From positions 42,470,001-42,534,000 of the forward strand of contig OZ024753.1 of assembly GCA_964016885.1 (NCBI GenBank): a DNA stretch of 64,000 nt, written 5' to 3'. The DNA is from Eledone cirrhosa. Taxonomy: Eukaryota. The position numbers and the translations under genes were made by a program. A model generated the notes under the pieces. It did no database searches, had not been told where the DNA came from, and saw only the letters and a program-made list of their open reading frames with translations. This document shows positions 18,248-61,862 of the stretch, piece by piece (position 1 is the first letter of the stretch; the number at the start of each line of letters is the position of its first letter).

Positions 18248-18443
18248 ATATTTAATATAGAAAGGCTTCTACAGGACTAGAACTGTTTCATTCGGGAGAA
18301 ATCATTAGGGCTTCCTGATGATTTCTCCCGAATGAAACAGTTCTAGTCCTGTAGAAGCCTTTCTATATTAAATATTTATACTCTGCTTTGTATTGAGTAC
18401 CTTACTTACTGTGGTTACCCCCGATTGAACCCGGGATAAACTT
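18248..18443 (+). mobile_element. Family B palindromic hammerhead element
   Basis: About 60 bp arms meeting at 18310-18313, tail TACTCTGCTTTGTATTGAGTAC..CCCGGGATAAAC, (TA)n on both sides. Confidence 0.9.
18309..18359 (+). ncRNA. Type I hammerhead ribozyme
   Basis: Stem I GGCTTC/GAAGCC; CTGATGA 18315-21; stem II TTC/GAA; GAAA 18334; stem III ACAG/CTGT with loop TTCTAGTC; predicted cut GUA after 18353. Confidence 0.8.
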
Positions 18444-19040
18444 ATATATATATATATATATATATATATATATATATATATATATATATATATATAACAG
18501 ACGTACTAAGAGTGAGAAATGAAATTTCGTTTCATTTTTTCCGTTTATATATATATATATATATATATATATATATACTCATGTGTATATATTTACACAC
18601 ACACACACACACACACTTTCACGCACACACACACACACACTTTCACGCACACACACACACACACACACACACACACACATATATATGTCTATACAACCGT
18701 GGGTGTAATCTATACATTTATTTACATACACGAAGAGATTTAGTTAAAATCTAGTTATACAAACCTGTATATCGTATGGCTGCTGAATATACATTTGACA
18801 CGAATATGTTTGTATACCTACCTCTGCATCTACTCTCACTTTATACACACACACACTCTCTCTCTCTCTCTCTATATATATATATATGTGTGTGTGTATG
18901 CGTATATATGTGTGTATTCGTACATATATATATATATATGTGTGTGTGTATTCGTATTTATTTATTTATATATATATATATATATATATATAAATGTATT
19001 CGTATATATATGTGTGTGTGTGTATGCGTGTGTGTTATAT

Positions 19041-19235
19041 ATAGGAACGAGTAGGACCCCGACGGCTGAGCTCAAGCCGTTTCGACGGCTAATTATGGAC
19101 TAGAATTAGCCGTCGAAACGGCTTGAGCTCAGCCGTCGGGGTCCTACTAGTTCCTATTACCCACTCTACTACCCTAAGTATTGAGTACTTTGGTGCGTTA
19201 TGGTCCATCTGGTTCCTTACCACATTTCCTTCGTT
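19041..19235 (+). mobile_element. Family A palindromic short element
   Basis: Arms + tail; tail abuts another repeat (19236-19280, also at 58302-58352). Confidence 0.9.
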
Positions 19236-19644
19236 GAGCCCTCTTTGGATTTTAGTCTTCAAATTTATTATTATTACTATATATATATATATATATATAT
19301 ATATATGCAATGAAATATCTATGATCGTCGGCAAATCACTGATGAGGGACTCATTTTATTACATGTTATCCATGTGCAACCTGCAGTATTCTTCTCCCCA
19401 TTTTTTCACACACATATATATATATATAATATATATGTGTGTGTATGCGTGTATATCTATATATCTAATGTGTGTGTGTATGCTTGTATATATATATATA
19501 TATATATGTGTATATATATCTATATATATATATATATAGACACAAAGTCAATATCGAAATCGACCCCCCTCCCCACGGGGACACACTCTCCCGTGAACAC
19601 CGATGTACACCCCCCCCACACATATATATATATATATATATATA

Positions 19645-19745
19645 CAGGGTGTCCCCCAAAAATGTTTACACACTTCAAAAGCATTTTAATAAATATTGCC
19701 TGCGCAGGTAATCAAAGTGTGTATACATATTTTGGGGCCATCCTG
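19645..19745. mobile_element. Tc1/mariner-type MITE
   Basis: TA-CAGGGTGTCCCC...GGGGCCATCCTG-TA; paralogue of 6480-6579. Confidence 0.85.
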
Positions 19746-19844
19746 TATATATTACACTTCCTGCCGAGCAAATTCCTCTCTGAAGGCATTGGCCAAACTG
19801 GGGCTCTTGTAGGTACCTACTTGCCTATGGTGCCGTGCCAAGCA

Positions 19845-20105
19845 AACCCCTTAATCACACTGCCATGTCAACAGCCTATGTTGTAAAGTGAACTCTTTAA
19901 TCACACAACCATATCTACACCTATGTGATTAGGAACCCCTTAATCACACAACCATGTCTACGCCTATGTTGTGAAGGGAAGCCCTCAACCACACAGCCCT
20001 CGCTACACTTATGTAGCTACGAAGGGAAGCCCTCAACCACACAGCCCTCGCTACACTTATGTAGCTACGAAGGGAACCCCTCAACCACACAGCCCTATCT
20101 ACACC
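19845..20105. repeat. Degenerate ~45-50 bp tandem repeat
   Basis: Recurrent AA(T/C)CACACA(G/A)CC...CTAC units. Confidence 0.7.
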
Positions 20106-20199
20106 TAAGTCTGTACTTGTTTTTGTTTTTTTTCTTACACTTGCATATTTCAATATATCCATGCAACTGCTGTTACTTGTATGTGTGTGCACATGTTGT

Positions 20200-58600: not shown

Positions 58601-58749
58601 ATATATATATATATATATATATACACATATATATAATGTTTGTGTGTGTGGTCTATGTAAAAAATATGTTAAGATTGTAAGTTTCAACTTAAAGGAATAG
58701 AAGGAACAACTGTGGAGGTACGGAGAATGGGAGTCAGTATAGTGTATGG

Positions 58750-59210
58750 GGGTGTGTTGAATGTTTGCTGCTATGGACTAATTCGGGGTGTGTGATGTTT
58801 TCCATAGACAAGGGAGGTCATTGTCAAAAAAATAGTTTGCTATGTCTTTCAAACCTATCAAAATATGAATATTTTCTGCTGTACAAGGTTGACATTTCTT
58901 GAACCATTAAAATAAATAGTCTGCATTGTTTTATAATCTTCGGTTTGATCTCATATTCAGGGATGAGCTTCTTCAGCTCTTATATGTGGAATGCTAGCGT
59001 AGTTTTGATTTGCTTATCAGTGTATGAGAAGGACGTACTCTATTTAAACAAAACATTGCTTAAATTTCCGCTTAACATACCTATATAAAGTTTCTGTGTG
59101 GCTTTGCGTGCTATAGTTTAGGTCACTTTAACCTCATGATTTTCTGGAAAATGTTTGTCGAGTCTTCTAGAGCATGGAATTGTTTGCCTATATTTTATCT
59201 TAACGTTAAA
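58750..59210 (-). pseudogene. Decayed Penelope-like linker and GIY-YIG endonuclease
   Basis: Broken frames give NVK..NIGKQFHAL..LDKHFPENHE, KLYIGM, TTLAFHI*ELKK..YEIKPKIIKQC, YFNGSR / KCQPCTAEN, PELVHSSKH; matches recalled PLE C-terminal motifs. Confidence 0.7.
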
Positions 59211-59214
59211 TATA

Positions 59215-60645
59215 TTTCTGCTTATCAATTTCTATTTTGGCTGACATCGAAATAGGACTGATAAGCAATATTTTTTTTTTTTACGAAAAAAAAAATCAAT
59301 ATCAAAATTTGCAAGGAAACTAGGAAACAAGAGCCAGAATAGTTTAGTTATTATCCGGTTGAAATATATCAAACACCTAAGGTTAAATTCACACAGTTTG
59401 ATATCGTAAATTTCTGTCTTTCTCTTTCCTAGATATTGATAAGGAATTGGCCAGGAGATACACTTCCAAAGCCAGTGTATATTCAGAAAGTATTATGAAC
59501 GCTTGTAAGTCCTTCCTCCGAGATACACTTACAAAGGCAGTGTAGATTCAGAAAGTATTATGAACGCCTGTAAGGCCTTCCTCCGAGATACACTTACAAA
59601 GGCAGTGTAGATTCAGAAAGTATTATGAACGCCTGTAAGTCCTTCCTCCGAGATACACTTACAAAGGCAGTGTAGATTCAGAAAGTATTATGAACGCCTG
59701 TAAGTCCTTCCTCCGAGATACACTTACAAAGCCAGTGTATATTCAGAAAGTATTATGAACGCCTGTAAGTCCTTCCTCCGAGATACACTTACAAAGGCAG
59801 TGTAGATTCAGAAAGTATTATGAACGCCTGTAAGGCCTTCCTCCGAGATACACTTACAAAGGCAGTGTAGATTCAGAAAGTATTATGAACGCCTGTAAGT
59901 CCTTCCTCCGAGATACACTTACAAAGGCAGTGTAGATTCAGAAAGTATTATGAACGCCTGTAAGTCCTTCCTCCGAGATACACTTACAAAGGCAGTGTAG
60001 ATTCAGAAAGTATTATGAACGCCTGTAAGGCCTTCCTCCGAGATACACTTACAAAGGCAGTGTAGATTCAGAAAGTATTATGAACACCTGTAAGGCCTTC
60101 CTCCGAGATACACTTACAAAGGCAGTGTAGATTCAGAAAGTATTATGAACGCCTGTAAGGCCTTCCTCCGAGATACACTTACAAAGGCAGTGTAGATTCA
60201 GAAAGTATTATGAACGCCTGTAAGTCCTTCCTCCGAGATACACTTACAAAGGCAGTGTAGATTCAGAAAGTATTATGAACGCCTGTAAGTCCTTCCTCCG
60301 AGATACACTTACAAAGGCAGTGTAGATTCAGAAAGTATTATGAACGCCTGTAAGGCCTTCCTCCGAGATACACTTACAAAGGCAGTGTAGATTCAGAAAG
60401 TATTATGAACGCCTGTAAGGCCTTCCTCCGAGATACACTTACAAAGGCAGTGTAGATTCAGAAAGTATTATGAACGCCTGTAAGTCCTTCCTCCGAGATA
60501 CACTTACAAAGGCAGTGTAGATTCAGAAAGTATTATGAACGCCTGTAAGGCCTTCCTCCGAGATACACTTACAAAGGCAGTGTAGATTCAGAAAGTATTA
60601 TGAACGCCTGTAAGGCCTTCCTTCCTCTCAGAACTCAGCATGGAA
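59215..60645 (+). pseudogene. Decayed Penelope-like reverse transcriptase fragment, interrupted by a tandem amplification
   Basis: EIGLIS (59249-66), KFTQFDIVNFCLS (about 59385-59423; FDIxxFYPS motif), LARRYT..IMNACKSFL, SQNSAW after the array. Confidence 0.6.
59456..60620. repeat. 65 bp tandem array, about 18 near-identical copies
   Basis: AGATACACTTACAAAGGCAGTGTAGATTCAGAAAGTATTATGAACGCCTGTAAG(T/G)CCTTCCTCCG. Confidence 0.97.
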
Positions 60646-61014
60646 TATTGTATTTCTTAACAGCTGAAAACTGTGTACTGCCGGGTAACATATTCATATT
60701 CGGGGTTTAAACATCTTTTAATATAATTCACACACTGTGTTATTACTGATTGCCCGTCCCCTCCGGAACTTCAAAAATATGCTCACTAAATTAAATAACA
60801 AATTAAATAACAAATAACACACACGCTCACACGTACATATACATACATACATACATACATATACATACATACATATATATACATACATAAATATATATAT
60901 ATATGTATATATATATACTTAATACATGCATACTGTCGACTCTAATAATGCATTGAGCTTTACGCACCTTACCAACAAGTAATAGTGAATTATTTCACTA
61001 TATTTATATAAATA

Positions 61015-61571
61015 TACTAGCAGTGGTACCCGGCGTTGCACGGGATAAGGTATTTTGGAACGCGGGCCGCCAACAGACCTAATCGTGGAAAAACTGCATG
61101 CCTGGACAATATGTAAAGAAAATAAACCGAATACTCTGATGGCTGGATAATCTTTAAGATTTTTCTCGATGAAGCAGGAAAAAATGCAGGTGTTCACCTA
61201 ATGCGGGCCATAGGGGATAATAAAATAATTTTTTTTTATGTGCACAATATGCCTTGAAATTTCGGGAAAATCGGCTAGACGTAACGCCTCCAAAAAGCCC
61301 TAAAAAGCTGAAAAAATGAAGTTTTTCACCTAATGCGGGCCCTAGGCCATAAAAAAGTTGGATTTTCTTTGCTCACGGTATGAAGAAGAGACTGACTAAT
61401 ACATAGTTACAATTTCAAGGAAATCGGTCTGACGTAACGCATCAAAAAACCCCTAAAAACCTGAAAAAACGCAGTTTTTCACCTAATGTTAAATTTTTTA
61501 TGTGCATAACAATCCCTGAAACATAAGTATTATATGTGTAAAGTTTGAAAACAGTCGGTTGGGTGCTTCTC
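61015..61571 (+). mobile_element. Helentron/DINE-like non-autonomous element
   Basis: Starts TACTAGCAGTGGTACCCGGCGTTGCACGGG (subterminal hairpin); ~140 bp internal repeats (TTCACCTAATG x3, AATTTC..AAATCGG); class assignment from recall. Confidence 0.55.
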
Positions 61572-61862
61572 AGTAGATGGTTAAGATTCAGTCATGGTAG
61601 ACTACCATGACTGAATCTTAACCATCTACTATGTCAGGGTATGTCATGTATCATTTTATTTTATCTGATGAGGACGTACTGTTGAAGTTAACTCAGTACC
61701 TCTGAAATAGGTATAATAAAATATACTTGATCACAAGAATATCTATTTTGTTAATATTTTGAATTAATATTAATAACTCTGGAAAACCATTACTGTTGAG
61801 TGCTTCCAATCTATTGTAAAACTCATTCTTTGATTTATTCATTGAACCTTGTTTAACTTTTA
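61572..61862 (+). mobile_element. Family I hammerhead element with terminal 59 bp perfect palindrome
   Basis: Palindrome 61572-61630 centred on 61601; hammerhead; ACTC..CTG-TT-GAGT hairpin 61776-61801; ends in (TA)n. Confidence 0.85.
61657..61723 (+). ncRNA. Type I hammerhead ribozyme with minimal stem III
   Basis: Perfect stem I TATTTTAT/ATAAAATA; CTGATGA 61665-71; stem II GGA/TCT + GTACTG/CAGTAC; GAAA-T-AGGT-A-TA; predicted cut after 61715. Confidence 0.8.

Follow-up and report, generated by a model that had tools for sequence, protein, structure and literature searches.

Type I hammerhead ribozymes in short (TA)n-flanked insertions of Eledone cirrhosa, probably derived from Hydra-like PLEs

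The window analyzed here is a stretch of 64,000 nucleotides of Eledone cirrhosa (assembly GCA_964016885.1, contig OZ024753.1, positions 42,470,001 to 42,534,000 of the forward strand), and all positions given below refer to it. Both of its strands were searched with a structure descriptor consisting of CUGANGA, stem II, GAAA, stem III, UH, and stem I. The search returned seven matches, compared with a mean of 0.04 and a maximum of 1 in 150 block-wise dinucleotide shuffles. The matches are six hammerheads (L1 to L6) and the minus-strand mirror of L3 (core at 43727), all with CUGANGA, GAAA, and NUH in the type I order. The six hammerheads proposed in a first-pass annotation were recovered with the same boundaries, cleavage positions, and triplets, as was the mirror copy. 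That annotation had described six sequence-divergent loci; there are indeed six complete folds, but only five families, as L3 and L4 belong to a single one (88% identity over 260 nt). The ribozymes are as follows.

18309 to 18359, plus strand: type I hammerhead L1; stem I 6 bp, stem II only 3 bp, stem III 4 bp, CTAG loop; GUA, cleavage site 18353
29862 to 29935, plus strand: type I hammerhead L2; stem I 5 bp, long stem II, stem III ATATATAT; AUC, cleavage site 29930
43864 to 43929, plus strand: type I hammerhead L3; AUA, cleavage site 43921
43670 to 43735, minus strand: exact mirror copy of L3 (arms with 0/160 mismatches); cleavage site 43678
46702 to 46766, plus strand: type I hammerhead L4, of the L3 family; AUA, cleavage site 46758
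54460 to 54520, plus strand: type I hammerhead L5; stem I 6 bp, stem II 10-11 bp, stem III 3 bp ACCACTGGT; GUA, cleavage site 54514
61657 to 61723, plus strand: type I hammerhead L6, predicted to misfold, with a non-palindromic stem III loop; AUA, cleavage site 61715
52129 to 52160, plus strand: minimal PLE hammerhead of textbook form, with an extra A, G10.1-C11.1, a CG loop, and GUC; stem I only 2 bp

The last of these, at 52131, had been overlooked in the first-pass annotation, and so had a near-complete copy of the L1 family at 48300, whose stem I is bulged.

Base pairs for stems I, II, and III are present in all six hammerheads. Stem I measures 6, 5, 8, 8, 6, and 8 bp from L1 to L6, and stem III 4, 2, 2, 2, 3, and 2 bp. 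The earlier claim of a very short stem III with self-complementary or near-self-complementary loops does not hold at L1, where stem III has 4 bp, nor at L6 as regards the loop, since AGGU is not palindromic and 6/8 positions pair in the dimer. All six carry an additional base after A9 and another before G12, the opposed bases being U.U, U.U, A-U, A-U, C.A, and G.U from L1 to L6. As a result, none of the six has G10.1-C11.1 directly next to the core; a G-C pair follows the extra bases in L2, L3, L4, and L6 and is absent from L1 and L5. The earlier designation as minimal PLE hammerheads holds for the PLE-type, type I topology, but not for the strict minimal form, which has no helix III beyond the core pairs and places G10.1-C11.1 beside GAAA. 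The six keep a helix III of 2-4 bp, and this form is seen only at 52131.

The insertions are short and truncated at their 5' end, and the hammerhead of each stands 100-200 nt before the 3' end; they terminate in (TA)n 57-149 nt past the cleavage site. The 3' end lies in (TA)n in six of six insertions and both ends do so in five, the left end of the L6 element abutting another repeat. An inverted upstream copy is found in five of the six, L5 being the one without it.

18255 to 18442, plus strand: L1 element between (TA)n runs; the inverted short arm (18255-18309) mirrors the ribozyme with its core changed to CUAAUGA, and the long arm carries the tail hairpin (18380-18399)
29708 to 29986, both strands: L2 element; the long arm and its tail hairpin occupy the minus strand (~29708-29825), the short arm runs on the plus strand up to (TA)n at 29987, and the ribozyme sits in the fold-back loop, outside the paired arms
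43631 to 44059, plus strand: L3 element, flanked on either side by (TA)n; arms in inverted orientation at 43631-43790 and 43809-43968, followed by the tail hairpin (43978-43998)
46526 to 46896, plus strand: L4 element; inverted arm 46526-46628, which has lost the ribozyme core but extends over stem III and the cleavage site as well as over the 3' strand of stem I; tail hairpin 46814-46834
48155 to 48365, no strand assigned: extra fold-back copy of the L1 family; plus-strand core at 48300 intact with stem I bulged, minus-strand core changed to CAGAUGA
54413 to 54617, plus strand: L5 element of a high-copy family, between (TA)n runs and without an inverted arm; tail hairpin 54557-54578
61572 to 61863, plus strand: L6 element; two inverted arms of 29 nt (61572-61600, 61602-61630) precede the ribozyme and the tail hairpin (61776-61802) follows it; (TA)n starts at 61864

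Arm-to-arm mismatches amount to 0/160, 0/42, 0/29, 1/55, and 1/59, and in an older copy the arms are only 78% alike. Such near-identical mirror arms point to young insertions; later homogenization of the arms could also yield them. Complete copies span the scissile bond, and even a copy at 58540 keeps C17. A tail is present at one end only in L1, L2, L3, L4, a further family of 12 copies, and the sequencing reads of the L5 family.

The two arms of the fold-backs end at fixed and different points. In six families the short arm ends 4-8 nt before a conserved RCTC…GAGY hairpin, whereas the long arm continues past it, so that two fixed 3' ends surround one hairpin. This type of hairpin lies behind five of the six ribozymes and in the long arm of the sixth, compared with 3.9% of 10,380 background windows, a comparison that is post hoc as the pattern was drawn from these loci themselves. 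The hairpin stem is part of the minimum-energy structure in all eight segments tested, with weak z-scores (0.1 to -2.9). The same short-arm/long-arm build around the hairpin was found on an unrelated animal contig. A scan of metagenomes for the tail motif delivered 15 loci, comprising one true analogue (L012) and 14 without a ribozyme, of which 12 are one recurring sequence; the same scan of viral sequences yielded 0 loci, and the half ribozyme of the 12-copy family had 0 matches in the metagenomes.

The L5 family is represented by 3357-3740 records per run in four sequencing runs. Its reads include copies ending at 54552 into (TA)n as well as several different opposite-strand joints at 54456-54497. 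Read ends at 54607 adjoin a masked repeat. Many read ends fall at 54523/54526, which is 9-12 nt past the cleavage site of L5; they were considered as cleavage-derived truncations and rejected, as they coincide exactly with AATT at 54523-54526, presumably a restriction site, in RAD-seq libraries. In two raw-read runs, unphased, the stem II partners G54478A and C54496T occur at similar frequencies, in 27-29% and 23-24% of reads, respectively, a covariation that is suggestive only. Among the 40 variants listed, none changes the core; any T54495C partner would fall among 46 others.

The window contains 270 stop-to-stop frames of at least 45 unmasked codons, of which 218 (85 + 133) were compared with Pfam and 52 repetitive ones omitted. 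No host exon and no RT or GIY-YIG fragment linked to any copy was found in these 218 frames. An RT/GIY-YIG ORF is not expected in the copies, because they are cut within 80 nt upstream of the ribozyme. Pfam matches were limited to a pair of mariner fragments, a single C2H2 finger enclosed by stop codons, and weak sub-threshold matches; a Lactamase_B match was discarded as an artifact of a CA repeat.

The six motifs are very probably the 3'-terminal hammerheads of (TA)n-targeting PLEs, most like those of the Hydra clade, in 200-450-nt 5'-truncated insertions that usually have an inverted 5'-truncated copy in front. As no ORF is linked to the copies, the assignment to PLEs and to a clade rests on non-coding features. 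Parents from another (TA)n-targeting clade, such as Neptune or an HHR-bearing Naiad, are unlikely. Neptune and Naiad elements also favor microsatellites (PMC8557442), octopus Naiads target (TA)n, and there is no ORF by which the families could be placed; canonical HHRs, however, are absent from Naiads (PMC8557442), and published Hydra entries agree with the families described here in the doubled extra base, in the letters of stem III, and in the tail hairpin. In Hydra HHRs, too, stem II is flanked by an extra base on either side and stem III is palindromic (PMC8557442 File S2), where acca-a-tggt of Hydra-1_oBim compares with ACCA-C-TGGT of L5. By eye, a GCTC…GAGCAC hairpin stands behind the HHR in Hydra-2_Amil and Hydra-2_Ajap (PMC8557442 File S7); it is absent from the published consensus ends of Hydra-1_Obim and Hydra-1_Ajap.

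It is improbable that the short fold-backs form non-autonomous families of a MITE-like or retrozyme-like kind that are copied as units, rather than independent truncations of full-length PLEs. They are very short and high-copy with fixed ends, the 5' half of the ribozyme is kept in 0/12 members of the abundant 12-copy family, and retrozymes have been described as non-autonomous PLE derivatives (preprint 10.64898/2026.07.22.740005). On the other hand, the fold-back junctions vary among copies, including the different joints in the L5 reads, and no head-to-tail units with an HHR each, which a retrozyme requires, surround the ribozymes in the window, where only solo or inverted copies occur.

The first-pass annotation had further suggested that several copies may still self-cleave and, if intronic, could cut host pre-mRNA. 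Such activity on plus-strand transcripts, whether by single copies or by dimers such as one between L3 and L4, which lie 2.8 kb from each other, is highly improbable, even though the cores are intact. When folded in isolation, the hammerhead is the minimum-energy structure for L5 only, near the minimum for L1, and far from it for L6. Stem-swapped dimers, which had also been proposed, model well for five of the six, at 0.2-2.6 kcal/mol from the two-strand minimum (at most 0.3 kcal/mol for L3/L4) and 2-9 kcal/mol more stable than two monomers, but L6 is predicted to misfold as a monomer and likewise as a dimer (22.8 kcal/mol above the minimum). In modeled read-through transcripts, the ribozymes L1 and L3 are paired over their entire length with their upstream inverted arms, and the arm of L4 takes up stem III together with the cleavage site and the 3' side of stem I; the arm hairpins of L1, L3, and L4 amount to -108, -255, and -159 kcal/mol, respectively. 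The probability of stem I is 0.00 at these three sites with 150 or 300 nt of flank and only 0.03-0.3 at L5, whereas it reaches 0.88 at L2, which is displayed in a hairpin loop but whose monomer core mispairs (core unpaired 0.35); these values omit tertiary contacts, proteins, and co-transcriptional kinetics. L5 is the best monomer candidate. As most copies are predicted to be folded shut or misfolded in situ, the cutting of host transcripts is unlikely; none of them is in tandem with a partner, and no host exon was found in the 218 frames. Solo metazoan PLE HHRs did not cleave as monomers and showed low activity in vitro even as dimers (PMC4209133), and PLE hammerhead activity has been reported to need the element's protein (PMC11167929).

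A chance origin of the motifs in AT-rich repetitive DNA is refuted by the shuffle comparison and disfavored by their common position and common downstream hairpin, even though several stems are AU-rich and weak and Rfam detects none of them (0 gathering matches in the window; only TA-repeat miRNA noise and no hammerhead among 150 of 365 matches listed; none among 10 at E≤10 around L5).

Published work on PLEs suggests how the insertions may have formed. The GIY-YIG nuclease of the element would nick (TA)n, and RT would prime at two RNA 3' sites, namely the tail end and a site just 5' of the hairpin. RT would then copy uncleaved RNA and stop in or shortly upstream of the structured ribozyme, and the joining of two such cDNAs head to head would give the fold-back. 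Within its parent element the ribozyme would most likely serve as a slow, dimer- or protein-assisted cutter of a tandem precursor RNA. In solo copies it would be a passenger, in most cases shut down by misfolding or by the mirror arm of the same copy, and probably intact mainly because the insertions are young. A broader, tentative reading is that the RCTC…GAGY hairpin, common to (TA)n-targeting PLEs, sets a second RT start 4-8 nt upstream, so that two opposite nicks each prime synthesis on one RNA. The hammerhead, left uncleaved and bearing palindromic stems, would then mainly be an RT stall and cDNA annealing site, a structural terminator rather than a cutter, and the restriction of complete folds to the plus strand could record that sense ribozymes were purged from the intron of a gene on the minus strand, which reverses the idea of pre-mRNA cutting proposed earlier.

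That an animal genome may hold thousands of solo PLE hammerheads has been known since 2014, and Hydra-type ones, including one from octopus, since 2021. Of mechanistic interest are the two fixed 3' ends around one hairpin and the clustering of fold-back points at the ribozyme, in several unrelated families and on the contig from another animal. No published description of two such ends was found in the literature searched. The hairpin is a precise candidate for a cis element that builds the inverted ends and tails of PLEs, a question left open by PMC8557442. The literature searched contained no cleavage assay of a Hydra-type hammerhead with the doubled extra base, although Lunse et al. 2017 may include such variants; L5 and L2 would be reasonable substrates.

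The closest known system is the Hydra clade (Craig, Yushenova, Rodriguez, Arkhipova 2021, PMC8557442), which includes Hydra-1_Obim of Octopus bimaculoides and combines (TA)n targeting with HHRs ~100-200 nt from the 3' end. The insertions described here share this position, the extra bases after A9 and before G12, the short palindromic stem III, and the (TA)n target. They also share the 5' truncation, the adjacent inverted copy, and the tail at one end only reported for PLE copies in the same work, with the inverted copy in five of six and opposite-strand joints in the L5 family. The RCTC…GAGY hairpin occurs in two of six readable Hydra consensus ends and in a looser form in two more. In contrast, stem II is longer in L2, L3, L4, and L6, the tails measure 60-90 nt rather than the published 30-40 nt, and a comparison by eye with the published consensus 3' ends gave no match for any of the five families. 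The ORF of the clade, with RT, a C-terminal GIY-YIG nuclease, and the motifs RWK and DKT and no CCHH, has no counterpart in the 218 frames.

Minimal PLE hammerheads (Cervera and de la Pena 2014, PMC4209133; also Lunse et al. 2017, as summarized in PMC6765202) have the same type I topology, extra base after A9, and palindromic stem III region. They likewise occur mostly as solo copies of truncated PLEs, with opposite-strand pairs 100-700 bp apart, and share the dimer-dependent model. The six differ from them in their helix III and in the second extra base before G12. Poseidon PAc of Anolis (Frangieh et al. 2024, PMC11167929) has a similarly AT-rich target and two RT start sites bounding an optional tail, and unprocessed RNA is its main insertion substrate, in agreement with the complete copies spanning the scissile bond. 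Its start sites, however, belong to an AC-rich stem loop within the start of the ORF, whereas the short end found here, a putative RT start, lies 4-8 nt before the RCTC…GAGY hairpin. Finally, non-LTR retrozymes (Cervera and de la Pena 2020, PMC7229834) also carry type I HHRs in short non-coding animal mobile units, but they are arranged head to tail, with canonical HHRs and expressed linear and circular monomer RNAs, whereas the copies described here are solo or head to head.

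A descriptor search of both strands recovered exactly the six type I hammerhead ribozymes (HHRs) of the first-pass annotation, together with the mirror of the one at 43864, versus 0.04 matches expected from 150 local shuffles, and the cleavage sites and triplets proposed there agree with ours for all six. The six motifs are real hammerheads, of a kind that is already known. Each carries an extra base after A9 and another before G12, and stem III measures 2–4 bp. They belong to five families, since L3 and L4 are 88% identical over 260 nt. No Rfam match in the window reached the gathering threshold, no hammerhead was among the matches listed (the best 150 of 365), and none was among the 10 matches at E≤10 around L5. 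A relaxed search additionally delivered a classical minimal hammerhead of Penelope-like elements (PLEs). The ribozymes are listed here by start (for the last, by span), with the length of the upstream inverted copy where one is present (a few TA bases are counted in for L1 to L4).

18309, plus strand: hammerhead L1, inverted arm of 67 nt
29862, plus strand: hammerhead L2, inverted arm of 50 nt
43864, plus strand: hammerhead L3, inverted arm of 170 nt
46702, plus strand: hammerhead L4, inverted arm of 66+53 nt
54460, plus strand: hammerhead L5
61657, plus strand: hammerhead L6, inverted arm of 29 nt
52131–52250, plus strand: minimal PLE hammerhead, stem I of 2 bp, followed by a tail and then (TA)n

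A degenerate motif at 12242 (minus strand) is of similar build to the minimal hammerhead at 52131. Three further copies of the L1 family (13960, 28192, and 48155) have damaged cores or stems.

Each of the six ribozymes lies within a 200–450-nt unit with a (TA)n end, and five of the units (L1, L2, L3, L4, and L6) have the upstream inverted copy. The long arm contains a small RCTC…GAGY hairpin 27–64 nt past the cleavage site and extends beyond it until (TA)n begins, +90 to +149 from that site. The short arm ends upstream of the hairpin. The distance between the start of TA and the hairpin position is 8 nt at L1, L3, and the 14000 copy and 7 nt at L2 and L4; in the 48300 copy, whose short arm is ambiguous, the end lies 16 nt before the hairpin. 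The L5 family is present in high copy (3357–3740 records in each of four runs, representing at most three samples); in reads and contigs, its copies pass into (TA)n at 54552, which is 4 nt short of the hairpin, and opposite-strand joints lie within and near the ribozyme. In the published literature, as far as our incomplete coverage extends, neither the RCTC…GAGY hairpin nor the fixed distance that separates it from the short end was found. A scan for the tail motif gave 15 matches, 14 of them without a ribozyme; the other is L012, a contig from another animal with two 7tm_1 genes. Here, a fold-back formed by the 3′ half of a hammerhead, with a tail hairpin of the same type (1773–1922), is located just downstream of one 7tm_1 gene on the opposite strand, and its short arm ends 5–6 nt before the hairpin, as in the window families. 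Stem III resembles the (TA)n target in the L2, L3, and L4 families. An L2-family copy at 58540–58600 (minus strand) has a 5′ end that blends into the (TA)n target within the ATATATAT stem III; this copy retains C17, and its template RNA was therefore uncleaved.

A sixth, abundant family comprises 12 (TA)n-inserted fold-back copies, each with the hammerhead 3′ half only (GAAAC, a 6-bp stem III, and GUC).

1108–1313, 2194–2385, 3624–3829, 7552–7715: (TA)n-inserted fold-backs
7770–7917, 15130–15305, 19041–19235, 27875–27968: (TA)n-inserted fold-backs
29022–29158, 29283–29484, 48071–48155, 49897–50089: (TA)n-inserted fold-backs

CUGANGA is kept in none of the 12 copies, and the fold-back point lies no more than about 25 nt upstream of GAAA or still further downstream. 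Ten of the 12 long arms extend to the (TA)n end, nine of the 10 short arms detected by BLAST share one end, 6 nt before the hairpin, and the scissile bond is spanned in nine of the 12 copies. In the 15130 copy, CCGAUGAC immediately precedes GAAAC, which may reflect a precise loss of stem II. This family could descend from a monomer-competent ribozyme.

Folded in isolation, only L5 adopts the hammerhead as its minimum-energy structure (ensemble share 0.11); at L1, it is close to the minimum-energy fold (share 0.045), and at L2, L3, L4, and L6 it is rare in the ensemble. All folding figures, here and below, are equilibrium estimates from a model that leaves out tertiary contacts and proteins. 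Dimers that swap stem III had been proposed, and as a predicted fold this holds for five of the ribozymes: the stem-swapped dimers of L1 to L5, and of the L3/L4 pair, fold 0.2–2.6 kcal/mol from the two-strand minimum, whereas that of L6 lies 22.8 kcal/mol above it. When 150 or 300 nt of flank are included, the probability of stem I falls to 0.00 at L1, L3, L4, and L6 and to 0.07 at L5; L2 reaches 0.88 in its flanking context, yet its core is mispaired. Moreover, in a read-through transcript the mirror arm would come before the ribozyme, and duplexes of −108 to −255 kcal/mol are predicted to cover L1, L3, and L4. With stem I so rarely predicted in context except at L2, and with three ribozymes buried by mirror arms, the suggested cutting of host pre-mRNA by these hammerheads appears very unlikely.

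The arms of the five mirrored elements differ at 0–1 positions each, and those of an older copy are only 78% alike. Youth of the insertions would be the simplest reason for the intact ribozymes, and selection at these six loci is not needed to explain them. Homogenisation of the arms could instead account for the near-identical mirrors. Complete folds present on one strand only are all on the plus strand (5/5 with the strict descriptor, two-sided p 0.06; 7/7 when 48300 and 52131 are added, p 0.016; both tests post hoc). At L1 and 48300, the mirror on the minus strand has an altered core. Little should be read into this bias across 18309–61723, because damaged minus-strand ribozymes at 14032 and 12242 keep an intact CUGANGA and mirrored ribozymes are sequestered anyway.

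The window is eukaryotic, with a G+C content of about 36% and about one-third low-complexity sequence; judging by its SINEs, it may be octopus-like. Pfam indicated no host exon in 218 of the 270 candidate frames, where the matches were mariner fragments, one lone zinc finger, and repeat artefacts. The mariner transposase fragments (Transposase_1 and HTH_48) lie at 14190–14453 (minus) and 16339–16563 (plus), and the single C2H2 finger, flanked by stop codons (23832–24002, minus), is probably a decayed element. A 195-aa frame at 39858–40445 (minus) has a weak MTES_1575 match (E 0.04) and eukaryotic Atlas clusters, with zf-RVT in 11% of one set; it resembles the C-terminal part of a non-LTR retrotransposon protein (zinc knuckle and restriction-like nuclease). 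Clean tandem arrays occur at 59455–60622 (unit of ~59 nt), 10316–11103 (~98), 35796–36220 (~42), and 37150–37959 (~21). The 42-nt unit has CTGAAGA and is similar to 17953–18000; descriptor searches found no hammerhead in it. Long near-perfect palindromes at 23373–23705 and 53059–53276 have no hammerhead match.

According to the parts of the literature covered, PLEs in general are 5′-truncated, lie next to an inverted copy, and have a tail at one end, and the Hydra clade combines (TA)n targeting with canonical HHRs (Craig et al. 2021, PMC8557442). Solo PLE hammerheads number thousands per genome, form opposite-strand pairs, and cleave not at all as monomers and poorly as dimers (Cervera and de la Pena 2014, PMC4209133; PLE hammerheads are also covered in PMC6765202). 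Frangieh et al. 2024 (PMC11167929) show that two reverse transcriptase start sites flank the tail, that protein assists cleavage, and that uncleaved RNA is used for insertion. Retrozymes are treated in PMC7229834 and are depleted in Xenopus introns (preprint 10.64898/2026.07.22.740005). Octopus vulgaris has recently active Penelope families, in passages that leave hammerheads unmentioned (PMC13282606). The window hammerheads represent the 3′ ends of truncated PLEs that target (TA)n, and judged by non-coding features only, these PLEs are probably of Hydra type. The Hydra HHRs in File S2 of PMC8557442 also have an extra base on both sides of stem II, and their stem III is palindromic; L5 has a stem III nearly equal to that of Hydra-1_oBim, and the ACAG…CTGT of L1 is common to four entries of that file. 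A GCTC…GAGCAC hairpin is present in two of six Hydra consensus ends (File S7), and GAGCAC is also the majority reading of the L5 family. What may be new beside these known systems is limited to the conserved tail hairpin with its two fixed ends.
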